This document shows, piece after piece, positions 34,161 through 64,000 of a stretch of 64,000 bases of DNA. Position 1 is the stretch's first letter, and each line of letters starts with the position of its first letter. Both the position numbers and the translations under genes were made by a program. Source of the stretch: Eubacteriales bacterium (GTDB lineage Bacteria; Bacillota; Clostridia; Oscillospirales; JAAYXM01); contig JAZNAQ010000022.1 in NCBI GenBank assembly GCA_045586595.1, positions 1,605 to 65,604 of the forward strand, given 5' to 3'. The notes below the pieces were generated by a model. It was not told the origin of the DNA. It worked only from the letters and a program-made list of their open reading frames with translations, and did not search any database.

Positions 34161-34208
34161 AAAAACTGCAACAATAAGAAGCCCTATTACGGGCCCTTAT
34201 TATTGCAG
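34161..34208 (-). terminator. Intrinsic terminator after the GGDEF gene
   Basis: On the minus strand, a roughly 18-bp stem CTGCAATAATAAGGGCCC...GGGCTTCTTATTGTTGCAG followed by U5. Confidence 0.75.
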
Positions 34209-34327
34209 CTGGACTGGCATAGTATAAAACCTTAGCCTCTTGGCTTTGCGTCGCCGACTTTCGCCGGTTTTGCCAAATGTTCAATTTTCACCAGTTTATC
34301 ACACTAAAGCATTTTTGTCAAACACTT

Positions 34328-49255: not shown

Positions 49256-49789
49256 TTAGTCTTTGTAGTTAATTCCGCAGTTGATTGCCTTTAAGTTTAC
49301 TTCTAAAAGGTTTGCGCGCTTTGCAGAAACAACCTTCTTGAGTGAATCCTCAATATTGTCAGTTCTCATGCCGCTTTCCTTCATGAGCTTACCTGTGATA
49401 ATCATGTTTGCGAGCGTCGGTGCCTCCATAGCCTGTGCAAGCTGTGTTGCTGGGATATAGAACACCTTGACGTCGTCTCTCTTAACCTTGCGCTCGATAA
49501 GAGTTGAGTCAACGATAATCATACCGCCGGGTACAACTGCATCCTCATACTTATCAAGTGACGGAAGGTTCATTGCAACAAGAATATCGGGGTTTGAAAC
49601 AATGGGTGAGCCTACAGGGTCATCAGAGAGGATAACGCTGCAGTTTGCTGTGCCGCCGCGCATCTCCGGACCATAGGACGGAAGCCAGCTGAGCTGTTTT
49701 CCCTCAAGAAGGCCTTTATATGCAAGGAACTTACCCGCGAACAGGATGCCCTGGCCTCCAAAGCCCGCTAAAAGCAACTGTGTTGTCAT
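49256..49789 (-). CDS. 2-oxoacid:ferredoxin oxidoreductase, gamma subunit
   Basis: About 177 aa from [20 protein letters not shown]. That start is 2 nt after the beta stop, so the track ORF's 27-codon extension overlaps the beta subunit. Confidence 0.85.
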
Positions 49790-49791
49790 AA

Positions 49792-50544
49792 TTATGCTTC
49801 CTCCTTCTGTGCGCTCTTGTCTCTGTAAACACCGAGCGGATAGTATGGAATCATCTTCTCGTCTACCCACTTGAGAGCGTCATTCGGAGTCATACCCCAG
49901 TTTGTCGGGCAGGTAGAGACAACCTCGATAAGAGAGAATCCCTTTCCCTCAACCTGATTGCGAAACGCCTTGAGAATTGCCTTACCCGCAGCCTTTACAT
50001 TTTTAACGCTGTTTACTGCAACACGCTCAATATACTCAGGTCCGTCGAGAGTTGAGAGCATTTCGCTGACTCTTATCGGGTAGCCTGCTGTTGTTACATC
50101 ACGCCCGTACGGAGATGTCTGAGTTACCTGGCCGGGGAGTGATGTCGGGGCCATCTGGCCTCCGGTCATACCGTAGATTGCGTTATTTACAAATATAACG
50201 GTAATGTTTTCATTACGAGCTGCTGCGTGGACTGTCTCTGCCATACCGATTGAGGCAAGGTCTCCGTCGCCCTGATATGTAAAGATAACATTCTCAGGGA
50301 AAGCTCGCTTAAGGCCCGTTGCGACAGCCGGAGCACGGCCGTGAGCCGCCTCTACCATATCGCATGAAAAGTAATCATATGCCATAACAGAGCATCCGAC
50401 CGGTGCGACACCGATTGTCTTGCCCTCTACGCCGAGTGCGTCAATCGCCTCAGCAACAAGGCGGTGAATAATGCCGTGGGTGCAGCCCGGGCAGTAGTGA
50501 AGCGGTGCGTCTGTTAAGCTTTTCGGTTTTTCAAATACTACCAT
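49792..50544 (-). CDS. 2-oxoacid:ferredoxin oxidoreductase, beta (TPP-binding) subunit
   Basis: 250 aa with YCPGCTHG and the GDGD TPP motif. Confidence 0.88.
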   Translation of the reverse strand: MVVFEKPKSLTDAPLHYCPGCTHGIIHRLVAEAIDALGVEGKTIGVAPVGCSVMAYDYFSCDMVEAAHGRAPAVATGLKRAFPENVIFTYQGDGDLASIGMAETVHAAARNENITVIFVNNAIYGMTGGQMAPTSLPGQVTQTSPYGRDVTTAGYPIRVSEMLSTLDGPEYIERVAVNSVKNVKAAGKAILKAFRNQVEGKGFSLIEVVSTCPTNWGMTPNDALKWVDEKMIPYYPLGVYRDKSAQKEEA

Positions 50545-51605
50545 TAGTTGCTACCTCCCTTGACTTCTTTAATTTTTTCAAGAACCTGCTCAGGTGACGG
50601 AATCATGCCGCCGACGCGGTTACAGAGATGAACAGGCTTTTTGCAGTCTGTTGCAAGGCGGATGTCTTCAATCATCTGGCCCATTGAAAGCTCAACGCTG
50701 ATAAATGCCTGTACCTTATCTGCAGCCTCAGCAAGCGGTGCCTTCGGGAACGGCCATACGGTAATCGGGCGAATCATACCGACCTTTATACCCTCTTTTC
50801 GTGCTGCAACAACTGCGTTCTTTGCAACACGGGCAGCGATACCGAATGCGACAACACAGTACTCTGCATCATCCATCATAAAGCTTTCGTATCTTGCCTC
50901 TGTCTCTTCTATAAGCTTATATCTCTCATAGCGCTCGATATTCTTCTGCTCGAGCTCTTCAGGCTTTAAGTAGAGCGAGTTTATGATGTTATGCTCGCGC
51001 TTCATATCAGTTCCGGTTACTGCCCACGGCTTATCTGTTGTATTAACGCTTTCTTCAGGAAGCTCAACCGGCTCCATCATCTGCCCCATTGTGCCGTCTG
51101 CAAGAAGCATAGCAGGCATACGATATTTTTCGGCAAGCTCAAACGCAAGAGCTGTCATATCAGCCATTTCCTGAACGGATTCAGGTGTAAGGACTATCAT
51201 GCGATAGTCGCCGTGACCTCCGCCCTTTGTTGACTGGAAGTAGTCTGACTGAGACGGCTGGATGCCGCCGAGACCGGGGCCGCCGCGCTGTACGTTAACG
51301 ATAAGTGCCGGAAGGTCTGCACCTGCAATATAGGAGATACCCTCCTGCTTAAGCGAGATACCGGGGCTTGAGGAGGAGGTCATAACACGCTTGCCTGTAC
51401 CCGCAACTCCGTATACCATATTAATAGCCGAGATTTCACTCTCTGCCTGGAGGAATGTCCCCCCGATTTTCGGCATTCTCTTTGCCATGTATGCCGCAAC
51501 CTCTGTCTGCGGTGTTATCGGATAACCGAAGTAATGGCGACAGCCCGCACGGATAGCGGCTTCTGCGATTGCTTCGTTACCTTTCATCAAAACTTTTTCT
51601 GCCAT
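50544..51605 (-). CDS. 2-oxoacid:ferredoxin oxidoreductase, alpha subunit
   Basis: About 353 aa from MAEKVLMKGNEAIAEAA, with RBS GAGGTG 8 nt upstream. Typical VOR/KOR alpha N-terminus. Confidence 0.88.
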   Translation of the reverse strand: MAEKVLMKGNEAIAEAAIRAGCRHYFGYPITPQTEVAAYMAKRMPKIGGTFLQAESEISAINMVYGVAGTGKRVMTSSSSPGISLKQEGISYIAGADLPALIVNVQRGGPGLGGIQPSQSDYFQSTKGGGHGDYRMIVLTPESVQEMADMTALAFELAEKYRMPAMLLADGTMGQMMEPVELPEESVNTTDKPWAVTGTDMKREHNIINSLYLKPEELEQKNIERYERYKLIEETEARYESFMMDDAEYCVVAFGIAARVAKNAVVAARKEGIKVGMIRPITVWPFPKAPLAEAADKVQAFISVELSMGQMIEDIRLATDCKKPVHLCNRVGGMIPSPEQVLEKIKEVKGGSN

Positions 51606-51617
51606 TTTCCGCACACC

Positions 51618-51824
51618 TCACTTTTCTACCTTGATTACGCAGTCCGGGCACATAGTTGCACAGAATGCGCAAGCGATACATTTCTCCTGGTCGGTTATCT
51701 CCGCCGGAGAATGACCCTTTTTGTTGATTTTGTCTTTTGCAAGACGGATTATCCCCTTCGGACAAGCTGTAACACAAAGGCCACAACCCTTACAAATGTC
51801 CGAGTCGAATGTTACCTTAGCCAT
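51618..51824 (-). CDS. 2-oxoacid:ferredoxin oxidoreductase, delta subunit (2x[4Fe-4S] ferredoxin)
   Basis: 68 aa with two CxxCxxCxxxCP motifs. Confidence 0.88.
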   Translation of the reverse strand: MAKVTFDSDICKGCGLCVTACPKGIIRLAKDKINKKGHSPAEITDQEKCIACAFCATMCPDCVIKVEK

Positions 51825-51845
51825 AATAACACTCCTTTTTCTGTA

Positions 51846-52514
51846 TTAAAATAATTTTTCTTGTAATTTGAGTTTAAAGAAAGACGTATTTTGCGCCTGC
51901 TCGCAAAGATTCTTTTCTGATGTTGTCATAACAACGGGAACGCCGGATATTTCCGCAAGTTCTTCAGCAAATGCCAAGGTGTTCACAACATCGTCGATTG
52001 TCGTCTCGACCCCGATATTGGAGTTATTGACAATCCCCGTAAACGGAATCCCCGATGCTGTTTCTATCTCGCGAAAAACCTCAAGCGCTTCTTTTGCCGT
52101 ACGCGTAAGCGGGCGATAGAAGTTTACAACGAACAGGTTTGCAAAGTCGTTCTCTTCTAAAATATACGGACGGTATCTGCCAAGAGCATACGCACCGCGG
52201 TCATCGCCGCCTATGTCCATAACAACCCGGCGGTCTCTCCTCTGCACAAGGCCATAGACCTCCTGCGGAAGCGAGGGCAAATCTACGCTTGTGTTTGCAA
52301 ACGGTAGCGCAATAACCTCAACACCTGCATCGGTAAGCTCTTTTAAGCTATCCTTTGTGCGGAAATACGGATTTACAATATCAATATCAGCGATACTTAC
52401 GGGAAAACCTTTCTCGCTTAAGTGGAGCGCATAGTTTACCGCGATGTTGGTTTTGCCGCTGCCGTAGTGGCCGCAGAAAAGAGTAACTCTTTTATTTAAA
52501 GCGTGATTGTCCAA
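51846..52514 (-). CDS. MinD/CooC-like P-loop NTPase, function unknown
   Basis: 222 aa with a deviant Walker A (GHYGSGKTN). Embedded between ilvE and the delta subunit, overlapping ilvE by 19 nt. Confidence 0.5.
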   Translation of the reverse strand: MDNHALNKRVTLFCGHYGSGKTNIAVNYALHLSEKGFPVSIADIDIVNPYFRTKDSLKELTDAGVEVIALPFANTSVDLPSLPQEVYGLVQRRDRRVVMDIGGDDRGAYALGRYRPYILEENDFANLFVVNFYRPLTRTAKEALEVFREIETASGIPFTGIVNNSNIGVETTIDDVVNTLAFAEELAEISGVPVVMTTSEKNLCEQAQNTSFFKLKLQEKLF

Positions 52515-53563
52515 TTAAACTTATCCTCACACTTGCCCCACTGAATACCTGTGATGGTGTCATAGAGCTTCTGGCTGACCTCGCCTATTGTGTTGTTATT
52601 GATAAGCATAACATCGTCTTTATAACGAAGCTTACCAACCGGCGAGATTACGGCTGCCGTGCCTGTTCCGAAGCACTCTTCAAGCTTGCCGCTCTTCTGT
52701 GCATTTAAAAGCTCCTCAACGCTTATTTTGCGTTCCTCAACCTCATATCCCCAGGACTTACATACCTCAATTACCGAGTTTCTTGTGATACCCGGCAGAA
52801 TGCTGCCGGAGTGCTCCGGGGTTACGATTTTGCCGTCAATCTTAAAGAAGATGTTCATAGCACCGACTTCTTCGATGTACTTTCTCTCTACACCGTCAAG
52901 CCAGAGAACCTGTGAATAGCCCTCGTCGTGAGCCTTGACCTGAGCCGCAAGAGAAGCTGCGTAGTTACCGCCTGTCTTTGCAAAGCCCATACCGCCCTTG
53001 ACAGCGCGGACATAGTCGTCTTCAATCCAGATACCTACAGGAGCAAGGCCGCTTGCGTAATATGCGCCTGACGGAGAAAGGATGATGATAAAGAGATATG
53101 TCTTTGACGGTGCAACACCGAGGAACTCGTCTGTTGCGATGATAAACGGTCTTATGTAGAGCGATGTGCCGGGGGCTGTGGGTATCCAATCCTCATCAAC
53201 CTTGACAACTGCTTTACATGCCTCTACAAAAAGCTCCTCAGGAAGCTGAGGGATGCAAAGACGCTCGTTTGTGGCGTTTGTTCTCTTTGCGTTCATATCA
53301 GGTCTGAAAAGGCGAGCCTTTCCGTCACGTCCTCTGTATGCCTTAAGGCCTTCAAACATTTCCTGACCGTAGTGGAAAACCATTGCGGACGGGTCGAGAG
53401 AGAGCTTCTCATACGGGACTATTCTCCCGTCGTGCCAGCCTTTTCCCTCGGTATAGTTCATAACAAACATATGGTCTGTAAACACCTTGCCAAAGCCGAG
53501 CTTTGACTCATCTTCTGGTCGCTGTTTAGGATTTGTTGTTTTTGTTATCGGAAAATTATACAT
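52496..53563 (-). CDS. ilvE: Branched-chain amino acid aminotransferase
   Basis: 355 aa, fold-type IV PLP enzyme (long IlvE form) with motifs FEGLKAY, GGNYAASL and GITR. Confidence 0.9.
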   Translation of the reverse strand: MYNFPITKTTNPKQRPEDESKLGFGKVFTDHMFVMNYTEGKGWHDGRIVPYEKLSLDPSAMVFHYGQEMFEGLKAYRGRDGKARLFRPDMNAKRTNATNERLCIPQLPEELFVEACKAVVKVDEDWIPTAPGTSLYIRPFIIATDEFLGVAPSKTYLFIIILSPSGAYYASGLAPVGIWIEDDYVRAVKGGMGFAKTGGNYAASLAAQVKAHDEGYSQVLWLDGVERKYIEEVGAMNIFFKIDGKIVTPEHSGSILPGITRNSVIEVCKSWGYEVEERKISVEELLNAQKSGKLEECFGTGTAAVISPVGKLRYKDDVMLINNNTIGEVSQKLYDTITGIQWGKCEDKFNWTITL

Positions 53564-53588
53564 TTCAAATCTCTCCTTTTTATTTATA

Positions 53589-55877
53589 TCACAGCTTATT
53601 TCTCTGAATCTTTCCGCTTACTGTCTTGGGCAGCTCGTCACGGAATACGACGAGGCGCGGATATTTATACGGAGCTGTATGCTCTTTAACATAGTTCTGA
53701 ATCTCTTTCTTGAGTTCTTCTGTAGGCTCTGTGCCCTTTGTAAGAACGATACTTGCCTTTACTATCTGGCCGCGAACCTCATCAGGTGCTGCAGAAACGC
53801 CACACTCAAGGACGTACGGAAGCTCCATGATAACGCTTTCAATCTCAAACGGCCCGATGCGGTAGCCGGATGACTTGATAACGTCATCAACACGGCCGAC
53901 ATACCAATAGAAGCCGTCCTCATCACGCCATGCGGTATCTCCTGTGTGATAGTATCCGTCGTGGAGAACCTCAAGAGTTTTTTCCTCGTCGCGGTAGTAC
54001 TCAACAAAGAGGCCGCAGGGCTTGCCGTTCTTTACGTTAATTACGATTTCGCCGGTCTCACCGACAGCTACGGGCTCGCCTTTGTCATTTACAAGCTCAA
54101 CATTGTATATCGGAGCAGGCTTACCCATAGAACCAATTTTGTGCGGAGCACCTATCATGTTACCGATAATCATTGTGCTCTCTGTCTGGCCAAAGCCCTC
54201 AATTATCTGAAGGCCTGTTGCCTTTTCAAATTGCTTATAGACCTCGGGGTTTAAAGCCTCGCCCGCTGTTGACATATGCTTGACAGACGAGAAGTCATAC
54301 TGCGAAATATCTTCTTTAACAAGCATACGAAGCATTGTAGGCGGTGCGCAGAAGGTCGTGATGTTATGACGCGCAAACATCGGAAGAATTTCTTTCGCAT
54401 CAAAGCGGTCAAAGTCATAAACGAATATTGCCGCCTCGCAAAGCCACTGGCCGTAGAGCTTACCCCACATAGACTTTGCCCAGCCTGTATCTGAAATTGT
54501 GAAGTGTAGCCCATCAGGGTCAACATTGTGCCAATACTTTGCTGTATGGAAGTGACCGAGCGGATATTTATGGTTGTGTGCCGCAATCTTCGGGTATCCG
54601 GTAGTGCCGGATGTAAAGAACATCAGAAGCAAATCATCGCCGCACGGTGAATCATCGTTTCTTTCAAAGTGTGAGCTGTATAGCGGGTACTCGTCAGCAA
54701 AGCTTCTCCAACCCTCACGCTCGCCACCGACTATAATCTTATGTATAAGCTCAGGGCAGGTCTTTGCCGCCTCATCTACCTGTGCGGTACACTCTCCGTC
54801 TGCCGTGCAGAGGATTGTGTTTACGCCCGCCGCCTGAAAACGATACTCAAAGTCATGAACCTGAAGCTGGTTTGTGGCGGGGATAGCGATTGCGCCGAGC
54901 TTATTAAGACCAATCATAGCATACCAGAATTCGTAATGACGCTTCAGTACGAGCATAACTCTGTCGCCTTTTTTGATACCGAGTGACTTAAAGTAGTTTG
55001 CGCATCTTGCTGATTCACGCTTTACATCCTCAAAAGTAATGCGGCGTTCTACTTTATTCTTGTCGATATGAAGCATCGCAAGCTTATCAGGCTCGCGTTC
55101 TGCCAAAGCATCTACAAGGTCGAAAGCAAAGTTAAAGTTTTCGGTGTTTTTAAACTCAATCTTTGTAGGTGTTCCCTTTTCGTTCTCTTCAACAGAAATA
55201 TACTTACGGTAAATTCTGTCCTTAGTGTCACGCTTGACCTCGCGGGGATCGTCGATAGCTTTTATCGGAGTAAGCTCAGGAATGGGCTCACCTGACGGAT
55301 TCAAAACGATTGCATAGAAAACACAATCACGACCGTTTACGGCAATCATACCGTGTGGGGTATTACTGTCAAAGTAAATGCTGTCACCCGCGCGGAGAAC
55401 CTCGCGGTGCTCGCCTATCTGAACCATAAGCTCGCCCTCAACGACTATGTCACACTCCTGACCATCGTGAGTGGTAAGCTCAATATCGCGGTTTTGCGCG
55501 CTCTCATCATAAGCACATCTGACGTAGAGCGGCTCTGCGATTCTGTTCTGAAAAGCATATGCAAGGTTATAATATGTCATGCCATGAGCATTTGCTATTT
55601 CCTGCCCCAAACCGTTTCTTGTAACCGTAAACGATTTAAGAGTAGGGCTGTAGCCCTCAATAATATCTGTTACGTTAACACGCAATGCAAGCGCGCAACG
55701 GTAAAGGAATGCAAAGTTAAGGTCTTGCTTGCCTTCTTCACACAAAATATACTCTTCAACCGAAACATCGGTCTTTTCGGCCATCTCTGCCGGGGTCAAC
55801 CCCTCAATCTCACGAAGTTCGCGTATACGAGATGCCATCTCTTGAATTTTGTAGTCAAGTCCTGATATAGGTTGCAT
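53589..55877 (-). CDS. XRE-HTH + cupin + medium/short-chain acyl-CoA synthetase (AMP-forming) fusion, paralog 1 (behind the Val T-box)
   Basis: 762 aa from ATG 55877 (MQPISG..., RBS GAAAGGATGG). HTH (LTPAEMAEKTDVSVEEY), cupin (GDSIYFDSNTPHGMIA), then AMP-binding motifs FTSGTTGYPK, YHTGDTAWRDEDGFYWYVGRVDDVIKSSGYRIGPFEIE and SGKIQR. Confidence 0.85.
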   Translation of the reverse strand: MQPISGLDYKIQEMASRIRELREIEGLTPAEMAEKTDVSVEEYILCEEGKQDLNFAFLYRCALALRVNVTDIIEGYSPTLKSFTVTRNGLGQEIANAHGMTYYNLAYAFQNRIAEPLYVRCAYDESAQNRDIELTTHDGQECDIVVEGELMVQIGEHREVLRAGDSIYFDSNTPHGMIAVNGRDCVFYAIVLNPSGEPIPELTPIKAIDDPREVKRDTKDRIYRKYISVEENEKGTPTKIEFKNTENFNFAFDLVDALAEREPDKLAMLHIDKNKVERRITFEDVKRESARCANYFKSLGIKKGDRVMLVLKRHYEFWYAMIGLNKLGAIAIPATNQLQVHDFEYRFQAAGVNTILCTADGECTAQVDEAAKTCPELIHKIIVGGEREGWRSFADEYPLYSSHFERNDDSPCGDDLLLMFFTSGTTGYPKIAAHNHKYPLGHFHTAKYWHNVDPDGLHFTISDTGWAKSMWGKLYGQWLCEAAIFVYDFDRFDAKEILPMFARHNITTFCAPPTMLRMLVKEDISQYDFSSVKHMSTAGEALNPEVYKQFEKATGLQIIEGFGQTESTMIIGNMIGAPHKIGSMGKPAPIYNVELVNDKGEPVAVGETGEIVINVKNGKPCGLFVEYYRDEEKTLEVLHDGYYHTGDTAWRDEDGFYWYVGRVDDVIKSSGYRIGPFEIESVIMELPYVLECGVSAAPDEVRGQIVKASIVLTKGTEPTEELKKEIQNYVKEHTAPYKYPRLVVFRDELPKTVSGKIQRNKL

Positions 55878-55905
55878 AATAAGCCATCCTTTCACGGAAC
55901 GAATT

Positions 55906-56191
55906 AAAAAGCACTCGTCCCAAAGCTGATAATCTTTGAGACGAGTGTCAGAATTTCTAATACACCCGCGGTACCACTCAAATTGCGCTTTACGCGCCAC
56001 TCAGACTCAAACAAGCCGTATGCATTTACGCAGCAGTCACGGAAAGGTTCTACTCGCCTTATATAAGACTTTCTTCCTCTCAGCTCAGAAGCTACAGACA
56101 CAAGTAACAATGCCGATAGTTCACACCCACCACTATCTCTCTGAAGGACTGTACACTCACGCTCTCTTCGTCAACGCCTTTATATTCATTT
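55906..56191 (-). promoter_or_regulatory. T-box riboswitch, specifier GUA (Val)
   Basis: Promoter TTGACA (56226-56221), 17 nt spacer, TATAAT (56203-56198). Stem I has the GA motif UUGACGAAG, AGAGAG bulge and a GGUG distal loop. Specifier loop GUCU-GUA-G-CUUC (codon at plus 56093-56095). CCGUGA F-box. T-box UUUGAGUGGUACCGCGGG (55965-55984). Terminator CACUCGUC...GACGAGUG plus U5 (55906-55947). Confidence 0.85.
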
Positions 56192-56278
56192 GTGGTTATT
56201 ATATATCAGTCAAGGGAATTTGTCAATACCTATTTGTGGCATATTATGAGTTTTTATGCGAGTTTTTGCGATTATCTA

Positions 56279-58546
56279 TCAAAGTTTATTCCTCTGAATT
56301 TTACCGCTTATTGTCTTGGGGAGTTCATCACGGAATACAACAAGGCGCGGGTATTTATACGGCGCTGTATGCTCCTTGACGTAGTTCTGGATTTCTTTCT
56401 TAAGCTCTTCCGTCGGCTCCGTCCCCTTTGTAAGAACAATGCTTGCCTTTACAATCTGACCGCGGAGCTCATCGGGAGCTGCAGAAACGCCGCACTCGAG
56501 AACATACGGAAGCTCCATAATGACACTCTCAATCTCACACGGCCCGATGCGGTAACCGGATGATTTGATAACATCGTCAATTCGGCTGACATACCAGAAA
56601 TAGCCGTCCTCATCACGCCATGCGGTATCTTCTGTGTGGTACATTCCGCCACGCATACACTCTTCCATTTTTTCTTCATCATCAAGATACTGTCTGAAGA
56701 GGCCAACAGGAGTTCCGTTATCAAGGCGTACAACAATTTCACCGACCTCACCATTTGCAACCGGGTTGCCGTCGAGGTCAACAATATCAATATCATACTG
56801 CGGAGATGCCTTGCCCATTGCGCCTACGCGCGGAGTCGTACCATAGAGGTTTGCGATAACAAGGGTTGTTTCTGTTTGGCCGAAGCCCTCCATTATCTTA
56901 AGGCCTGTTGCCTTTTCAAATTGCTTATACACTTCGGGGTTGAGTGCCTCTCCTGCTGTTGTCATATGGTGGATGGAGGAAAGGTCGTATTTTGAAAGGT
57001 CTTCTTTTATGAACATACGAAGCATTGTTGGCGGCGCGCAGAAGGTTGTGATGTTGTATTTTGCAAACATCGGGAGAATTTCGTTTGCAGAAAAGCGGTC
57101 AAAGTCGTAAACGAATACTGCCCCCTCGCAGAGCCATTGGCCATAGAGCTTACCCCAGAGGGATTTGCCCCAGCCTGTGTCAGAGATTGTAAAGTGGAGC
57201 CCATCACGCTCGCAGCAGTGCCAGTATTTTGCAGTCACAAAGTGACCAAGGCCGTATGTGTGCTTATGCTCGACCATTTTCGGGTTACCTGTTGTTCCCG
57301 ACGAGAAGAACATAAGAGCCGCCTCATCGCCGCAGGGGGTATCATCGCTTCTGTCAAAGTGGCTTGAGAACATTGCATATTCGCTGTCAAAATCATGCCA
57401 GCCATCGCGATGACCGCCGACAAGTACAAGAGTTTTTACACTCGGGCATTTCTTTGCTGCAGCCTCTGCGATTGTAGCCGTATCATCATCAGCGGTGCAG
57501 ACAACAGCCTTTACGTTTGCCGCCTCATAGCGGTATACAAAGTCGTGGTCCTTAAGCTGATGTGTTGCAGGGATTGCAACAGCACCGAGCTTATGAAGCG
57601 CAACCATCGCAAACCAGAACTGATAATGGCGCTTGAGAACAAGCATTACGCGGTCACCCTGACCGATGCCGAGTGACTTGAAATAGTTTGCACATCGTGC
57701 CGATTCTTTTCTTATATCATCAAATGTAAAGCGGCGCTCAACCATGTTCTTGTCAACATGGAGCATCGCAAGCTTATCGGGAGTTTTCTTTGCAATTTCG
57801 TCGACAACATCGAAGCCGAAGTTGAATGTATCAGTATTCATAAACTCGATTTTTTCGAGTACGCCCGGCTCGCTCTCTGTACATTTTACAAACTTCTCAC
57901 ACGCGAGCTTTGTTGCCGGACGAAGAGATACAACGCTCTCGCGCACTTCTTCTTCCTTTGCATCCTCTCCAGGGAGAACTACTGCACAGAATACGCAGTC
58001 TTCACCGTTTACAGCTATCATACCGTGCGGTGTGGAGCTGTTATAGTAGATGCTGTCACCCTCGCTTAAAACTTCGGTGTGAGTGCCGACCTGAACCTTG
58101 AGCGAGCCCTTGAGAACGAGGTCAAACTCCTGCCCGCTATGCTTTGTAAGGTGTATCGGCTTATTCTGCTGCTCCTCAGAGTATTCATATCTTACCCAAT
58201 AGGGCTCAGCTATTTTGTTTTTAAACTTCGGGGCAAGGTTTGAAATGCTGATACCCTCCTCTTTAGCCGTCTCCTGCCCCTTGCCCTTACGAGTTACGGT
58301 GTAAGAGGAAAGATGCGCCGTGCGGCCCTCCAAAAGTTCTGTAAGCTCAATACCAAAGGCAAGCGCGCATTTGTGAAGAAACGAGAACGGCATATCCGCC
58401 GCACCGTTTTCGAACTTTTTGTATTCATCAAGTGTTACTTCGGTTTTCTCTGCCATCTGGTTTGCAGTCATACCCATAACCTCACGCATCTCACGGATGC
58501 GGGCTGCAACCTCGCCGAGTTGTGTCATAGTTTTTTCTGTGCTCAT
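56279..58546 (-). CDS. XRE-HTH + cupin + acyl-CoA synthetase (AMP-forming) fusion, paralog 2 (behind the Ile T-box)
   Basis: 755 aa from ATG 58546 (MSTEKT..., RBS AAAGGAG). Same architecture as paralog 1, with the C-terminal ~85 aa nearly identical. Confidence 0.85.
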   Translation of the reverse strand: MSTEKTMTQLGEVAARIREMREVMGMTANQMAEKTEVTLDEYKKFENGAADMPFSFLHKCALAFGIELTELLEGRTAHLSSYTVTRKGKGQETAKEEGISISNLAPKFKNKIAEPYWVRYEYSEEQQNKPIHLTKHSGQEFDLVLKGSLKVQVGTHTEVLSEGDSIYYNSSTPHGMIAVNGEDCVFCAVVLPGEDAKEEEVRESVVSLRPATKLACEKFVKCTESEPGVLEKIEFMNTDTFNFGFDVVDEIAKKTPDKLAMLHVDKNMVERRFTFDDIRKESARCANYFKSLGIGQGDRVMLVLKRHYQFWFAMVALHKLGAVAIPATHQLKDHDFVYRYEAANVKAVVCTADDDTATIAEAAAKKCPSVKTLVLVGGHRDGWHDFDSEYAMFSSHFDRSDDTPCGDEAALMFFSSGTTGNPKMVEHKHTYGLGHFVTAKYWHCCERDGLHFTISDTGWGKSLWGKLYGQWLCEGAVFVYDFDRFSANEILPMFAKYNITTFCAPPTMLRMFIKEDLSKYDLSSIHHMTTAGEALNPEVYKQFEKATGLKIMEGFGQTETTLVIANLYGTTPRVGAMGKASPQYDIDIVDLDGNPVANGEVGEIVVRLDNGTPVGLFRQYLDDEEKMEECMRGGMYHTEDTAWRDEDGYFWYVSRIDDVIKSSGYRIGPCEIESVIMELPYVLECGVSAAPDELRGQIVKASIVLTKGTEPTEELKKEIQNYVKEHTAPYKYPRLVVFRDELPKTISGKIQRNKL

Positions 58547-58597
58547 TGCATTTTCTCCTTTCAAATTAAAAACCTTAAAATTTTTAATTGAATAACA

Positions 58598-58879
58598 AAG
58601 ACTCGTCTCAAAGCTTTTATACTTTGAGACGAGCCGAATAAACTATATCCGATACCCGCGGTACCACTCAAATTGCGCTTTACGCGCCACTCAGGCTCAA
58701 ACAAGCCTTATGCATTAACGCAGCAATCACGGAAAGCGTCTACTCGTCAAATCAAACTTTCGGGCTTCCAGCTCAGAAGTGATAGGCAAAAAACATTTCG
58801 CTACCGGGATTACACCGTCCCCGACTCTCTGTAAGCTACCTTGCTTTTCCGTCTTCGTCATAGCCTTTGCTATTCAATT
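58598..58879 (-). promoter_or_regulatory. T-box riboswitch, specifier AUC (Ile)
   Basis: Promoter TTGACA (58914-58909), 17 nt spacer, TAAACT (58891-58886). Stem I has AUGACGAAG, AGAGAG and a GGUGUAA distal loop. Specifier loop GCCU-AUC-A-CUUC (plus 58781-58783). T-box UUUGAGUGGUACCGCGGG (58655-58674). Terminator GGCUCGUCUCAAAG...CUUUGAGACGAGUC plus U run (58598-58635). Confidence 0.85.
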
Positions 58880-58924
58880 GAATACAGTTTACACCTGTTT
58901 TTTCTCTTTGTCAAGACCTTTTTG

Positions 58925-61384
58925 TTATTTTTTAAGACCAAGAATTTTCTCTGATTCCTCACGCATTTTATATTTAAGAATCTTACCCGCGGCGTTCATT
59001 GGGAACTCATTGACAAACAAGAAATATCTCGGCACCTTATGGCGCGCGATAGACGCGTTTCCGAACTCGCGCATCTCTGCCTCGTCGGAGGTTTCGCCCT
59101 TATGGAGAATAATCCACGCGCAACATTCCTCACCGTAACGCTCATCGGGAACTCCTACAATCTGAACATCTCGTATCTTCGGATTTGTCAGGTAGAACTC
59201 CTCAATTTCACGCGGATAGAGGTTTTCGCCACCGCGGATAATCATGTCCTTAAGTCGGCCTGTTACCTTATAATATCCGTCAGGCGTACGGCAACAAATA
59301 TCACCGGAGTGAAGCCAGCCGTCAGCATCAATAGTCTGTGCTGTTGCGTTGGGCATTTTGTAGTAGCCCTTCATTATGTTAAAGCCTCGCGCAACAAACT
59401 CGCCGCTCTCACCGTCAGGAAGCTCCTCACCCGTTTCAGGATCAATGACCTTACACTCAACACCCGGGAAAGCACTTCCGACAGTCTCGACCCTGTGGTC
59501 GAGGTCTTCATTAACCTCTCCCATGGTACAGCCGGGAGAAGCCTCAGTCTGGCCGTAAACGGAGATAATCTCGCGCATATTCATCTCAACAGAGGCACGG
59601 CGCATAAGGTCAGCAGGGCAGTTTGCTCCCGCCATGATGCCCGTACGCATATATGAAAAATCTGTCTTTTCAAAGTCAGGGTGGTTAAACATTGCGATAA
59701 ACATAGTAGGAACACCGTTAAAGCATGTGATATGCTCATCGTTAACGCACGCAAGTGACGATTTCGGTGAGAAGTACGGCATCGGGCAAAGCGTGCCGCC
59801 GTGAGTCATCATTGACGTCATCGAAAGCACCATTCCGAAGCAGTGGAACATCGGCACCTGAATCATCATTCGATCGGCAGTGGAAAGGTCCATCCTGTCA
59901 CCGATTGTCTTGCCGTTGTTTACAATATTTCTGTGTGTGAGCATAACGCCCTTCGGGAAACCGGTTGTACCTGAGGTGTATTGCATATTACATACATCGT
60001 CAGGCTTTACCATTGATGCACGACGGCGTACCTCCTCCTTCGGAACAAGTGCCGCGCGGTCAAGCATCTGCCCCCATGTAAGACAGCCGTGCATAGAGAA
60101 GCCAGCAGTAACAACATTGCGTAAAAACGGCAACTTTTTTGAGTAAAGCGCATCGCCCGGCTTCATATTTTCAAGCTCGGGGCAAAGCTCCTGGATGATT
60201 TCGCGGTAGTTTATATCCTTGCAGTCCTCAATCATAACAAGTGTATGGGTGTCAGACTGCTTTAGCAGATACTCAATCTCGTGGATTTTATATGCTGTAT
60301 TAACTGTTACAAGAACTGCCCCTATTTTAGTTGTTGCCCAGAAGGTTATGAACCACTGAGGAACATTTGTAGCCCATACTGCAACATGGTCGCCCGCTTT
60401 TACGCCGAGCGAAATAAGCGCCGCAGCGCACTCGTCGACATCACGCCGAAACTGTGAATATGTCCTTGTATAGTCGAGCGTAGTATACTTAAACGCATAC
60501 TGGTCAGGATAAGTCTCCGCCATGGTATCAAGCACCTGCGAGAAGGTCTTATCTATAACATCATACTTTTTCCATACAAATGTGCCTGTTCCCGCACGGT
60601 TATAATACAACTTATCATACTCTTTCTTCTCGCGTGAAAGGTTTGCAATATAGTTTGCAAAATGAGTAAGAACGATGTCTGCATCATTTATCTCGTCATT
60701 CCATGCAACCGATACAAAGCCGTCGAAGTTAAGAGACGAAAGTGCGTTTATAAACTCGGTTACAGGAAGAGAGCCTTCACCGATGAGGACGTTTTGTCCG
60801 TCCTTCTTATCGCCGAGGCGTACATACTTAATATATGCGCCAAGGTTTGTAATTGTTTTCTCCGCGCTCTCGCCTGCGCCGAAGTATGTTTCGCGGACAT
60901 TCCATGACGCGCCAACTACTGCAGAAGAAAAGAAATTGATAATATCAATGACATTCTCGGTTGCAGAGAGGTGTCCTGCAGTTTCAAGAAGAATCTGAAT
61001 ATCTGTTTCTTCAGCGCGTTTGATTGCCGGAGCGAGCTTTTTTGAAAGTTCTTCGTTTGACATTTTCTCCTCTATCCTGAGGATAATGCGCTCAACACCG
61101 GCGCTTGAAGCCATATTGACATATTTGAGTATTTCATCTGCGCTTGCATAATCACTTCCTGCATCATGAGGATATACAAGAGCGGATACCTCAAGCCCGC
61201 GATTTACGAGTTTTCTCTTTGCATCGGCCACTCTGTCACTGCGGAGAATGCTGTCGTAGTGCTTCTTTCTTTCACCAAGAGCGTCATAAATCTCAAACCC
61301 CGAATAACCGTAGTCATATGCATAACGACACATATCGAGAAACGACGGGCGGTTTACATTTTTTGTCGAAAAGGTAAGCTTCAT
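58925..61384 (-). CDS. Xylose-isomerase-like TIM-barrel domain fused to a FadD-type AMP-forming acyl-CoA ligase
   Basis: 819 aa from ATG 61384 (MKLTFSTK; RBS GAGGAGGA lies inside the upstream gene's end). The N-terminal ~260 aa are AP-endonuclease-2/sugar-isomerase-like. The C-terminal part carries YTSGTTGFPKGV, YGQTE, GWLHSGD and RGGENLYPREIE. Confidence 0.75.
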   Translation of the reverse strand: MKLTFSTKNVNRPSFLDMCRYAYDYGYSGFEIYDALGERKKHYDSILRSDRVADAKRKLVNRGLEVSALVYPHDAGSDYASADEILKYVNMASSAGVERIILRIEEKMSNEELSKKLAPAIKRAEETDIQILLETAGHLSATENVIDIINFFSSAVVGASWNVRETYFGAGESAEKTITNLGAYIKYVRLGDKKDGQNVLIGEGSLPVTEFINALSSLNFDGFVSVAWNDEINDADIVLTHFANYIANLSREKKEYDKLYYNRAGTGTFVWKKYDVIDKTFSQVLDTMAETYPDQYAFKYTTLDYTRTYSQFRRDVDECAAALISLGVKAGDHVAVWATNVPQWFITFWATTKIGAVLVTVNTAYKIHEIEYLLKQSDTHTLVMIEDCKDINYREIIQELCPELENMKPGDALYSKKLPFLRNVVTAGFSMHGCLTWGQMLDRAALVPKEEVRRRASMVKPDDVCNMQYTSGTTGFPKGVMLTHRNIVNNGKTIGDRMDLSTADRMMIQVPMFHCFGMVLSMTSMMTHGGTLCPMPYFSPKSSLACVNDEHITCFNGVPTMFIAMFNHPDFEKTDFSYMRTGIMAGANCPADLMRRASVEMNMREIISVYGQTEASPGCTMGEVNEDLDHRVETVGSAFPGVECKVIDPETGEELPDGESGEFVARGFNIMKGYYKMPNATAQTIDADGWLHSGDICCRTPDGYYKVTGRLKDMIIRGGENLYPREIEEFYLTNPKIRDVQIVGVPDERYGEECCAWIILHKGETSDEAEMREFGNASIARHKVPRYFLFVNEFPMNAAGKILKYKMREESEKILGLKK

Positions 61385-61385
61385 C

Positions 61386-62774
61386 TTAATCCTCCTCAAA
61401 CACTATCTTATTCAGCGCGTTGATATACGCTCTGATGCTTGCTGCCACAATATCAGTAGAGATTCCGTTGCCGGAATAGAGTTTTCCATCCACGCGAAGC
61501 TTTACAACAGCCGAGCCAAGAGCCTCCTTGCCCTCAGTAACGGCATGGATCTGGAAATCGTCAAGCTCATAGTGATAGCCTATGCACTGTTCTATTGCAC
61601 GAAATGCTGAGTCTACAGCGCCGTCACCCATACTTACGCCGCAGAGAATTTCGTCACCGCACTTGAGCGTAACCTGTGACATGGCACTTGTGAGATTGCC
61701 GCAGTTTGTGGTGTAGCTCTCAAGGTGATATGTTGACGGTGCCTGCATGGCAGAGCTTGCTATAAGTGCCTCAAGCTCCTTCGCGCCGACTGTGCTCTTC
61801 TTCTCGCATACCTGCACAAGAGCACGGTATACATTTCCGTTATCCTCATCGGAAAGGTCATATCCGAGAACCTTTGCAGCCTGTGCAACATCTGAAAGCG
61901 TACTGTCGCAATCAAGAACGATTTTTTTCTTCTCACTTGCAGCATCTGCGCTCTCGTAAGCATCATGATTTATCTTTCGGAGCATCTCATCTACACTTGA
62001 ATGTATCTGGGTAGCTACAATAGAAGTGGATATGCCGAGAGCTTCGCCTCTTGCGCTTATTGCGTCAGAGAGCTCGCCTACAGACAAAACATTCTTTCCT
62101 GCCATCGCACACTTAAGCCCGTCAGCCCCTGCCTTTACCGCAGCAATAGCAGTTGCAACAGCCATATTGATACTGTCGGATACCTGAACATATACCGATG
62201 TGTTTACCTGAGCCTTTATTGCAGCGGTAAGCTCTGCAATCTCCTCAGGAAGTGAAACTCCGGCGTCGTCGCAGATAGTTACGATTCCTGCGCCGCTTGC
62301 CTCAGCCGCTTTAACTGCATTAATAATGAAGTCACGGTCTGCACGAGTTGCATCAAGTGCAACAAATTCGACATCGGGGCAGAATTTCTTTGCCTCGGCT
62401 ACAAGCTCTTCAATCTTTGTAAGCATCTTATCTGCCTTGAGATGATATATATACTCCATCTGCACCGTAGAAGTAGGGAGGGCTACCTGAAGGCGCGGCT
62501 TTGCTGCATCTTTTATACACTCCCATGCGACAGACACCTCGTCTGCCGTAAAGCCGACAGGGAGAGCGACTGCGCTGCTTTTAACGTTTGATGCAATCGT
62601 TTTATAAATAATTGTATCCTCGCGAACATTCTTTATTGGCGCAAGCTCAACAGCATCCGCACCGAGAGAATCTGCACACGCCGCTATAGCTGTTTTCTCT
62701 CTGAAGAGCAGTGAAACCTCACGGTCTTGTGAAAGCTCCTTTAACGTGATGTCAGTAACTAAAATTTTCTTCAT
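61386..62774 (-). CDS. 2-isopropylmalate synthase (LeuA) homolog lacking the catalytic and metal-binding residues but retaining the C-terminal LeuA regulatory domain
   Basis: 462 aa, collinear with recalled B. subtilis LeuA. DTTLRDGEQ is replaced by DITLKELSQ, HCHDD by QVSDS, and GIGERAGN by GKNVLSVG. The C-terminus (TEGKEALGSAVVKL...GISTDIVAASIRAYINALNKI) matches the LeuA_dimer domain. Confidence 0.7.
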   Translation of the reverse strand: MKKILVTDITLKELSQDREVSLLFREKTAIAACADSLGADAVELAPIKNVREDTIIYKTIASNVKSSAVALPVGFTADEVSVAWECIKDAAKPRLQVALPTSTVQMEYIYHLKADKMLTKIEELVAEAKKFCPDVEFVALDATRADRDFIINAVKAAEASGAGIVTICDDAGVSLPEEIAELTAAIKAQVNTSVYVQVSDSINMAVATAIAAVKAGADGLKCAMAGKNVLSVGELSDAISARGEALGISTSIVATQIHSSVDEMLRKINHDAYESADAASEKKKIVLDCDSTLSDVAQAAKVLGYDLSDEDNGNVYRALVQVCEKKSTVGAKELEALIASSAMQAPSTYHLESYTTNCGNLTSAMSQVTLKCGDEILCGVSMGDGAVDSAFRAIEQCIGYHYELDDFQIHAVTEGKEALGSAVVKLRVDGKLYSGNGISTDIVAASIRAYINALNKIVFEED

Positions 62775-62820
62775 AGGTAAAACCCCTTTCTCTGCAATTT
62801 AAATTTTCAGATGTTCGACA

Positions 62821-63127
62821 AAAACGCTTTCATCTCTTTGTTATCCTTTAATAACTCAAAGAGACGAAAGCGTTAAAACTCAAGTATTTAAACCTTTCGC
62901 GGTACCACTCTTTTTCATCCTACGGCGAGGATGCACCTCAGGTGCTGACACACCTTGACTCTGTTACGGGAGCTCCCGTCCGCCCCTACTCTCTTTCAAT
63001 TTCACGGCAGCCGCTCCGTGGTGAGTTCAACGAGGCTAACCCAATGCCTTGCACCAACCGGCATCTCTCTGCGCGGGTATAAGCTTTTCGCATACTATTC
63101 CACATCATCGCGTTTGTTTTCAATTTG
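62821..63127 (-). promoter_or_regulatory. T-box riboswitch, specifier CUC (Leu)
   Basis: Promoter TTGACA (63162-63157), 17 nt spacer, TATAAT (63139-63134). Stem I has GCGAUGAUGUGG, the AGUA S-turn, AGAGAG and a GGUGCAA distal loop. Textbook specifier loop GAA-CUC-A-CCAC (plus 63023-63025). T-box AGAGUGGUACCGCGAAAGG (62896-62912). Terminator AACGCUUUC...GAAAGCGUU plus U4 (62821-62874). Confidence 0.9.
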
Positions 63128-63186
63128 GTAAACATTATATCACTGCATTTTTTGTTTGTCAACAGTTTTCAAAAAATTTTATTAAC

Positions 63187-63633
63187 CTAATTCGCGGCTT
63201 GTGTGTTAGATATTATTTCAATCAGTTTTTCATAAAAGCTATTATCCTGCTCTTTTGTGCGCTTGGGCGGGCCTTTGAGCCTGCCGCCTGCGTTTCTTAT
63301 TTTCTTTGCAGTATGGCGAGCAAGAAGCAGAGCGTCAATATTCTCATTTGTGTACTCAAGCCCATCCTGGTTTATACACACTGCCCCTCGAGAGAGCGCC
63401 ATAGAAGCAAGACCGTAGTCCTGCGTTATCACAACGTCACCTTTCGAAACAAAGTTTACAAGGGCAAAGTCCGCACTGTCTGCTCCCTTAGGAACAACAT
63501 GGGTCTCTGCACCGTTTTTATCAAATATATGTGCGGTATCACAAAATATGTGGCAGTCTTTTTTTAAGCTTTGCGCCGCTTTTATCGCAATATCAACAAC
63601 CGGGCATCCGTCGGCATCTATAAGCACTCGCAC
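63187..63633 (-). CDS. YaiI/YqxD (UPF0178, DUF188) family protein
   Basis: 148 aa with the family-typical MRVLIDADGCPVV N-terminus. Confidence 0.78.
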   Translation of the reverse strand: MRVLIDADGCPVVDIAIKAAQSLKKDCHIFCDTAHIFDKNGAETHVVPKGADSADFALVNFVSKGDVVITQDYGLASMALSRGAVCINQDGLEYTNENIDALLLARHTAKKIRNAGGRLKGPPKRTKEQDNSFYEKLIEIISNTQAAN

Positions 63634-63755
63634 ACCATCACCACCTTTATTTTATTGTATCATAAAAATAAATATAAAACAAAATTTTTATACTGAATAA
63701 AAAACCATTTAGTATAGATACTAAATCCGACTACTAAATTTTTGGAGGAATTTAT

Positions 63756-64000
63756 ATGAGACCCAAAGACCTTATAGATACACAGGATTTTTCAAAGCCC
63801 GAAATACTCCATATTATAAATATCGGGCTTGCACTCAAAAAGTGTATCAAAAACGGCTATTACCCGCCAATTCTCAGAAACAAAACGCTGGGCATGATTT
63901 TCCAGCAGAGTTCAACACGTACAAGAGTTTCGTTTGAAACCGCTATGGAGCAGCTTGGCGGTCATGCTCAGTATCTCGCACCGGGCCAGATTCAGCTTGG
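63756..64000 (+). CDS. Carbamoyltransferase (ornithine/putrescine carbamoyltransferase-like), N-terminal part, runs off the window
   Basis: Hand translation from ATG 63756 (RBS GGAGGA): [29 protein letters not shown]...[19 protein letters not shown]. It contains the S-T-R-T-R carbamoyl-phosphate binding motif. Confidence 0.7.

Follow-up and report, generated by a model that had tools for sequence, protein, structure and literature searches.

Tandem valine and isoleucine T-box leaders in a clostridial genome probably share their 3′ block through constraint and short gene conversion

Introduction

How do two riboswitches that read different specifier codons come to share an almost identical 3′ segment? 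The question is raised by a locus of an Eubacteriales bacterium (Bacillota; Clostridia; Oscillospirales), for which we analysed a stretch of 64,000 nucleotides (nt), called here the window (GenBank assembly GCA_045586595.1, contig JAZNAQ010000022.1, positions 1,605 to 65,604). It carries a tandem pair of T-box leaders, one with a valine (Val) and one with an isoleucine (Ile) specifier codon, each of which precedes a gene for a fused acyl-CoA synthetase; all leader features of these units and of a third, leucine (Leu) unit lie on the minus strand, as do their genes. A first-pass annotation, made from the letters alone, had noticed that a 94-nt block of the Val leader (55965–56058) differs at only seven positions from its counterpart in the Ile leader (58655–58748), next to divergent Stem I regions, and had interpreted the pair as a duplicated riboswitch-plus-ligase cassette offering a rare visible snapshot of specificity evolution. 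The account that we favour, and to which we give a probability of roughly 0.7, is that the two T-box units are ancient and that their 3′ block is alike through constraint combined with repeated short gene conversion.

Results

The ungapped comparison of the reverse complements of 55965–56058 and 58655–58748 gives exactly 7 mismatches in 94 positions (92.6% identity), as had been counted by hand. The whole cassettes are 64.7% identical in a global alignment, and the divergence of the leaders is not uniform, since identity in 60-nt windows shows a clear peak of 0.90–0.95 over the block, against 0.43–0.62 in Stem I (about 53% overall) and 0.37–0.65 in the adjacent 5′ coding region; other coding patches of the cassettes reach 0.85–0.92. 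The tRNA-recognition half is thus the part that differs, as the first-pass annotation had stated. The block comprises the 3′ strand of Stem II, Stem IIA with its F-box, an additional hairpin (hairpin 1), Stem III and the T-box sequence. Its near-identity ends within the antiterminator, as the Val and Ile leaders differ in the upper antiterminator helix, in its loop and in the terminator. Of the 3′ "decision module" described earlier, the shared part is therefore the sensing half, not the switch itself. Inside the block lies a run of 41 identical nt (56004–55964 = 58694–58654), which is the longest in the 2.7-kb cassette alignment and is probably the latest conversion tract. Two runs of 30 and 29 identical nt were also seen in the coding regions, at 54210–54239 = 56900–56929 (encoding YKQFEKATGL) and 53912–53940 = 56602–56630 (DTAWRDEDG), for which additional micro-conversion or codon bias may account.

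To place these values we used a scan for relatives that took one genome per species. More than 558 relatives were detected and the best 80 loci were retained, most of them from metagenome-assembled genomes (MAGs) of Oscillospiraceae, Acutalibacteraceae and other Clostridia of ruminant and human gut origin. A profile made from both window leaders found 135 leaders in this set, 76 Val-type and 59 Ile-type, where the type was set by whether the downstream protein is closer to the Val-type or to the Ile-type protein of the window, and specifier codons were read off the leader alignment. Val–Ile comparisons comprise 56 within-genome and 3080 cross-genome pairs, and none of the latter reaches 0.926 over the block columns (maximum 0.904). 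Between the two window genes, synonymous sites are saturated, with a proportion of synonymous differences (pS) of 0.68 overall and a synonymous divergence (dS) that is incalculable in many windows. Given this saturation, the 94-nt block is far more alike than neutral DNA, which bears out the earlier claim that it is more conserved than the coding DNA beside it.

A recent duplication, with rapid re-specification of Stem I and a 3′ block that has merely not diverged so far, would account for the block being the most similar segment of two clearly paralogous cassettes, at 92.6% identity. The cassettes do belong together as had been proposed, with leaders of the same family and proteins that share a four-domain architecture and 64% amino acid (aa) identity, although the "ligase" is an acyl-CoA synthetase and not an aminoacyl-tRNA synthetase. 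The rest of the evidence runs against recency. Silent sites are saturated throughout the genes, and 56 of the 80 species-level genomes carry the tandem Ile-type/Val-type pair, the two types forming orthologous lineages there with codons fixed by type: Ile-type leaders carry ATC in 59/59 cases and Val-type leaders carry GTA in 71 and GTC in 5 of 76, so that the specifier agrees with the downstream enzyme type in all 135 leaders. In Stem I the nearest neighbour is a leader of the same type in 135/135 cases and the leader's own paralogue in none, and the two window leaders are consequently not sister sequences. The variable hairpins, by contrast, agree with each other within the window and differ from those of its nearest relatives. 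We find a recent duplication hardly credible, and the near-identity of the block is not leftover similarity from such an event.

The silent-site saturation and the orthologue survey together indicate that the duplication and the codon change predate the divergence of the sampled species, and we read both as ancient, not recent. That the specifier was re-specified at some point is upheld by the different, type-matched codons of the paralogous cassettes; the idea of a rare visible snapshot is not, given the saturated silent sites, the wide distribution of the pair and the fixed codons. The Val leaders with GUC are those of L012, L017, L021, L062 and L077; a single change at the first codon position separates GUC (Val), AUC (Ile) and CUC (Leu) from one another, which makes a one-step path among the three specificities. 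Several genomes, L009, L011 and L067 among them, have a Val-type unit without an Ile-type unit directly upstream in the 10 kb that was fetched; in these the Ile-type unit may lie elsewhere or be absent, and they may be usable as outgroups for polarity.

Part of the likeness of the 3′ block is a matter of constraint. Across the 135 leaders, 46 of the 94 columns are at least 90% conserved, and these make up the Stem IIA/F-box region and the T-box sequence, which are 85–99% conserved. The paralogue-type signal, taken as the margin of Val–Val and Ile–Ile identity over Val–Ile identity, amounts to 0.05–0.32 over Stem I and Stem II with its peak (0.30–0.32) at the specifier loop, and drops to 0.00–0.01 from 56041 to 55965. 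Purifying selection alone, acting identically on both copies without any exchange between them, would keep the conserved columns alike and would likewise give zero paralogue signal. The other 48 columns, however, vary freely and with compensatory changes, yet reach 85% identity in the window, whereas cross-genome Val–Ile pairs have 49 ± 10% (maximum 81%) and within-genome pairs a mean of 61%, and such an excess over the cross-genome level is a signature of concerted evolution.

Selection alone also predicts equal Val–Ile identity within and between genomes, and the two are unequal. Over the whole block, identity is 0.751 within genomes and 0.687 between them (Wilcoxon p = 5e-8), and the within-genome excess, of 0.09–0.17, is found in 56026–55980 only (0.15–0.17 in hairpin 1); elsewhere it is at most 0.03, including the variable Stem I columns, which served as an internal control for genome-specific base composition. 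Both leaders of one genome share genome-specific helix sequences and indels, as in L054, L010, L005, L057, L040, L014 and the window, and whole hairpins are identical within a genome in 4/56 and 3/56 pairs compared with 9/3080 and 0/3080 cross-genome, counts that were reached in none of 10,000 permutations. In the hairpin segment, the cross-genome Val–Ile identity tracks Val–Val and Ile–Ile identity at all divergence levels but the closest, and the mean within-genome value of 0.75 equals the level of orthologues whose proteins are 85–90% identical. Nearest neighbours in this segment are of the same type for 87 of the 135 leaders and are the genome's own paralogue for 13. Taken together, these observations make purifying selection without exchange an unlikely explanation of the whole block and point to probable recurrent short gene conversion, limited to the part of the leader that is neutral with regard to specificity.

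Within-genome similarity confined to particular structural elements is also what would be expected if a genome-specific protein or RNA partner recognised the hairpins and held both leaders alike by co-adaptation, without exchange of DNA. We know of no such sequence-specific hairpin factor for T-boxes. In the window's Leu T-box the hairpins are arranged as in the Val and Ile leaders but have other stem sequences, which speaks against a sequence requirement across the genome; covariation in the helices is of the ordinary, structure-preserving kind, and the loop lengths and indels shared by both leaders of L054 and of L010 are more simply explained by copying. We regard co-adaptation as very unlikely. 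Exchange between leaders may involve the Leu unit too, and not just the Val–Ile pair. In two genomes a Leu (CTC) leader belonging to the family of the Val and Ile leaders precedes the LeuA-like gene on the opposite strand (L041:3501–3753 and L049:6593–6850, both minus strand), and its Stem III segment is 0.75–0.78 identical to the genome's own Val leader, against 0.56–0.57 to the Ile leader.

That the exchanged hairpins are real helices is supported by RNAalifold on the 135 leaders and by pair counting on a 44-sequence leader alignment, which agree on three elements: Stem IIA with the F-box (GCGUAAA) in its loop (56021–56035), in which 4/4 pairs show changes on both sides in the 44 leaders; hairpin 1 (GGCUU-GUUUG-AGUCU type, 56003–56018), with 98% of cells paired and compensatory changes in 5/6 pairs; and Stem III (GCGC-GUAAA-GCGC, 55985–55997), which also covaries. 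Hairpin 1 and Stem III lie in the homogenised segment. Overall, pairing is kept in 93.7% of cells, compared with 79.8% in shuffles (0/500 of which reach the observed value) and 25–48% when the partner strand is slid, and changes on both sides occur in 11 of 14 pairs. Such covarying pairs mean that the stem sequences are free to vary as long as pairing is kept. The alignment of variable loops is imperfect; in the clade of the window, for example, MAFFT places Stem III out of register. A long-range pairing between the F-box region and the T-box sequence, also drawn by RNAalifold, was not accepted, as its columns are invariant with zero covariation. Whole-leader minimum free energy folding was uninformative (z of about 0 for the Val leader and a global fold without T-box architecture), and was replaced by covariance model (CM) alignment, local folds and covariation.

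The history of the window's own tract can be approached through its nearest genomes, L001 and L042, whose proteins are 89–91% identical to those of the window. In both, Ile leaders carry the Stem III sequence GGCACGAUAAGUGC and Val leaders carry GGCGC...GCGC. The Stem III of the window's Ile leader is that of its own Val leader, GGCGCGUAAAGCGC, while the Ile-type terminator region is kept as in L001 and L042. It looks as though a short tract was copied between the leaders in the lineage of the window, and comparison with these two genomes tentatively suggests the direction Val to Ile. The 92.6% identity of the window's block would then be due to an unusually fresh tract, represented by the 41 identical nt.

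The two leaders in which this would take place are predicted to work as ordinary T-boxes do; they contain an additional hairpin and score below the Rfam threshold. Rfam was scanned at its curated threshold over the whole window and then permissively over 52000–64000. The Val leader extends from Stem I to the terminator at 55912–56183 and matches RF00230 at 55934–56183 (79.6 bits, E 2.5e-16, model positions 1–219); the Ile leader, at 58600–58870, matches it at 58622–58870 (79.8 bits, E 2.3e-16). Our set holds 76 orthologous leaders of the former and 59 of the latter. Against the assignment, both scores are under the RF00230 gathering score of 93 bits, yet the model is covered over its full length, and the shortfall is due to insertions (in Stem II, and the extra hairpin), not to absent elements. 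The Stem I platform elements UGACGAAG, CAGAGAG and GGUGGGUGUGA match conserved positions of the model and are kept in the family consensus. CM alignment puts the specifier position at GUA in the Val leader (56093–56095, followed by G at 56092) and at AUC in the Ile leader (58781–58783, followed by A at 58780), in agreement with the codon calls of the first-pass annotation.

Downstream, the T-box sequence of the Val leader, AAUUUGAGUGGUACCGCGGG (55965–55984), is at least 99% conserved in the 135 leaders and forms the 5′ strand of the antiterminator, with a 7-nt UGGUACC bulge. Folded alone with the next 30 nt, it gives an antiterminator of −14.4 kcal/mol (55934–55984), and the Ile leader gives the same energy and the same 7-nt bulge. 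The terminators are a 14-bp stem of −22.3 kcal/mol (z −6.1) followed by CUUUUU in the Val leader (55912–55947) and a 15-bp stem of −25.0 kcal/mol followed by a U-rich tail in the Ile leader (58600–58635). In both leaders the terminator shares a strand with the antiterminator, so that the two are mutually exclusive, and the terminator is the more stable. Promoter-like sites precede both leaders, TTGACA-17 nt-TATAAT at 56198–56226 (12/12 consensus positions) and TTGACA-17 nt-TAAACT at 58886–58914 (10/12), and are putative promoters of the respective units. The Leu T-box (62857–63117, with CUC at 63025–63023) scores 107 bits and is the sole T-box of the window at the Rfam curated threshold. Elsewhere in the window a c-di-GMP-I riboswitch aptamer was found at 34201–34284 on the minus strand (62.5 bits, cut-off 35).

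Both regulated genes encode proteins with the Pfam architecture HTH_XRE, cupin_2, AMP-binding and AMP-binding_C, of 762 aa for the Val-type gene (53589–55877), predicted to be an isobutyrate-CoA ligase, and of 755 aa for the Ile-type gene (56279–58546), predicted to be a 2-methylbutyrate-CoA ligase. The AMP-binding N- and C-domains (PF00501 and PF13193) are present in both, and the best PDB match is 3ETC (E 7e-191, residues 244–760). The substrates are most likely isobutyrate for the Val-type and 2-methylbutyrate for the Ile-type enzyme, as judged from the T-box codons and from the neighbourhood of Vor and IlvE genes. MbcS is known to activate 2-methylbutyrate and isobutyrate selectively and isovalerate poorly (PMC10026030), and it is the best NCBIfam match of both proteins (NF047394). 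The first ~240 aa of both synthetases consist of the HTH_XRE and cupin_2 domains, and the full-length protein has ~750–770 aa in most of the 80 loci; a synthetase that carries what is probably a ligand-sensing transcription factor, and that is itself under a T-box, suggests a second layer of regulation.

The C-terminal ~100 codons of the two genes (53589–53900 and 56279–56590) encode sequences that are 97% identical between the window paralogues. The paralogue-type signal in the protein, mostly 0.02–0.27, is about zero in these ~100 residues; cross-genome identities there are 0.84–0.89 for Val–Ile and 0.85–0.90 for Val–Val, with zero paralogue-type signal in 52 genomes. A recent conversion of the protein C-terminus was considered and rejected, because silent sites in that region are near saturation as well (pS 0.54–0.68), and the likeness could stem from an old conversion tract or from an unusual shared constraint.

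The pathway genes follow the Val-type gene downstream and span 49256–53563. They encode IlvE, a branched-chain aminotransferase that passes its NCBIfam cut-off (52496–53563); a small P-loop protein with weak ParA/Mrp-type (iron-sulfur carrier) matches only (51846–52514); VorB, which also passes its cut-off (50544–51614); and the beta (49792–50544) and gamma (49256–49870) subunits of the Vor 2-oxoacid:ferredoxin oxidoreductase. The P-loop gene lies directly upstream of VorB in nearly every locus with Vor genes, and its product may be a maturation factor for the iron-sulfur oxidoreductase. Upstream of the Ile leader, the Leu T-box unit contains a gene for a xylose-isomerase-type TIM barrel fused to an AMP-binding acyl-CoA synthetase (58925–61399) and, following the Leu T-box, a LeuA-like gene (61386–62774) with HMGL-like and LeuA_dimer domains, which stays under every isopropylmalate-synthase equivalog cut-off; this unit may provide the isovalerate/Leu branch of the pathway. 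Most of the 80 loci keep, with some rearrangements, the order Ile-type gene, Val-type gene, P-loop, VorB, Vor beta, Vor gamma, IlvE, LeuA-like, TIM-barrel synthetase.

From gene content and rumen physiology, the locus looks like one that makes valine, isoleucine and leucine from isobutyrate, 2-methylbutyrate and isovalerate, with each entry enzyme induced by the shortage of its own charged tRNA. Two points tell against this picture: the MbcS matches (442.8 bits for the Val-type and 434.1 bits for the Ile-type protein) are under the equivalog cut-off of 850, and the pathway that these genes encode could operate catabolically.

Discussion

We propose the following sequence of events for the regulation of this locus. 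Under valine starvation, uncharged tRNA-Val would pair with GUA in Stem I of the Val leader, and its free CCA end would pair with the UGGU of the bulge, which would stabilise the antiterminator (55984–55934) over the terminator (55947–55912) and allow transcription of the Val-type HTH-cupin/acyl-CoA synthetase. The Ile leader would act by the same mechanism with tRNA-Ile and AUC, and the two units would be independently promoted. Isobutyrate and 2-methylbutyrate would be converted to their CoA thioesters, carboxylated reductively by VorABC and transaminated by IlvE to valine and isoleucine, and the Leu T-box unit would play the equivalent role for isovalerate.

As for the evolution of the leaders, each would have been duplicated along with its gene well before the divergence of the Oscillospiraceae and Acutalibacteraceae sampled here, and Stem I and Stem II would have descended as separate orthologous lineages since then. 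The F-box/Stem IIA region and the T-box sequence would have remained near-invariant under constraint, and the two hairpins between them (56018–55985) would have been overwritten repeatedly by conversion tracts of ~40–80 nt. The leaders are direct repeats 2.69 kb apart, in which the invariant T-box sequence and the F-box region, of ~20 nt each, may anchor gene conversion or template switching. Tracts extending as far as Stem I or Stem II would place an enzyme under the control of the wrong tRNA and be removed by selection, which would explain the sharp change of the paralogue signal near 56041.

Several points weigh against this account. The average effect in the hairpin segment is modest (0.75 within genomes against 0.62), and many genomes, such as L038, L076 and L015, have no within-genome excess, which implies that conversion is episodic. 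The 41-nt run is bounded by type-specific sites, and the set holds no relative near enough to show the state before and after conversion; a metagenome scan with a 23-mer specific to the Ile leader gave zero matches, and one with a gapped pattern gave 43 loci, none nearer than ~0.9 to the window leaders. Ile-type leaders with GGCGCGAAAGCGC occur in more distant metagenome loci and weaken the Val-to-Ile polarity. Nearly all comparison genomes are MAGs, and anchor motifs of ~20 nt are at the lower limit for RecA-type exchange.

If the account is right, the boundary of concerted evolution may map the modularity of a riboswitch, and the leaders may be natural chimeras with swapped modules. It suggests that the 3′ platform of T-boxes is interchangeable across amino acid specificities, and that Stem I and Stem II are not. 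More generally, similar regulatory RNAs next to saturated coding DNA need not mean a recent event, as a mix of constraint and local conversion can produce the same likeness. Trees of whole T-box leaders would mislead under such a process, and the unreliable leader trees noted before (PMC2494555) may in part be due to it. The specifier codons, in turn, provide a testable annotation for the widespread HTH-cupin/acyl-CoA synthetase fusions, with their more than 558 relatives.

Fibre-degrading rumen bacteria have long been known to require branched-chain volatile fatty acids, and this requirement is poorly defined genetically; the codon labels link the fused synthetases to it. We hold at about even odds the wider proposition in which conversion would repeatedly swap the Stem III region among Val, Ile and sometimes Leu leaders and stop at the tRNA-decoding boundary, GUA/GUC, AUC and CUC would label three otherwise unannotatable acyl-CoA synthetases as the activators of isobutyrate, 2-methylbutyrate and isovalerate, and the whole would form, in gut and rumen Clostridia, a route from branched-chain fatty acids to amino acids controlled by tRNA charging. 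Within their limited scope, our literature searches returned no report of concerted evolution or gene conversion in riboswitch or T-box leaders, nor of T-box control of Vor, of the rumen pathway or of branched-chain or fused acyl-CoA synthetases. The points of interest of this locus are the segment-limited concerted evolution and the regulated pathway; the leaders themselves are of a known kind.

Compared with the T-box family (RF00230), the leaders have the same Stem I with GA (K-turn) motif, AG bulge, distal loop and specifier loop (codon and next base), and the same Stem II, Stem IIA with F-box, Stem III, UGGN-bulged T-box sequence and mutually exclusive antiterminator and terminator. They depart from it in their scores of ~80 against 93 bits, in the insertion in Stem II and in the extra covarying hairpin between Stem IIA and Stem III, and in place of aminoacyl-tRNA synthetases, classical biosynthesis operons or transporters, the genes they precede encode acyl-CoA synthetase fusions.

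The enzymes share the two-domain, AMP-forming acyl-CoA synthetase core of Staphylococcus aureus MbcS and of the Methanosarcina acetivorans protein 3ETC, and the MbcS substrates 2-methylbutyrate and isobutyrate correspond to isoleucine and valine. Unlike MbcS, they stay below the family cut-off, carry an HTH_XRE and cupin extension of ~240 aa and occur as two specialised paralogues instead of one enzyme, with a proposed role in amino acid salvage and not in fatty acid priming. Rumen bacteria, in classical physiology, reductively carboxylate branched-chain volatile fatty acids to branched-chain amino acids. The locus resembles that pathway in its clustered genes for acid activation, VorABC and a branched-chain aminotransferase, and in its occurrence in ruminant and gut Clostridia; the route from isovalerate to leucine in rumen bacteria is cited in PMC7356843.

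That a T-box is duplicated along with its gene and then takes on a new specificity is a described mode of T-box evolution (Wels et al. 2008, modes ii and iv; PMC2494555), and the same work states that specificity is not visible in the overall leader sequence; the term gene conversion occurs 0 times in it. Our locus fits that mode as a duplicated leader-plus-gene unit with specifier codons matched to diverged paralogues, and differs in that the two halves of the leader have separate histories, the specificity half being orthologous and the 3′ half homogenised. Gene conversion homogenises bacterial paralogues such as the duplicated tuf genes and the rRNA operons. The leaders resemble these in having bounded tracts, episodic exchange and paralogous segments that are closer within than between genomes. 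They differ in that the tracts measure tens of nt, belong to a non-coding regulatory RNA and end where a functional module ends, next to coding DNA that is saturated at silent sites.

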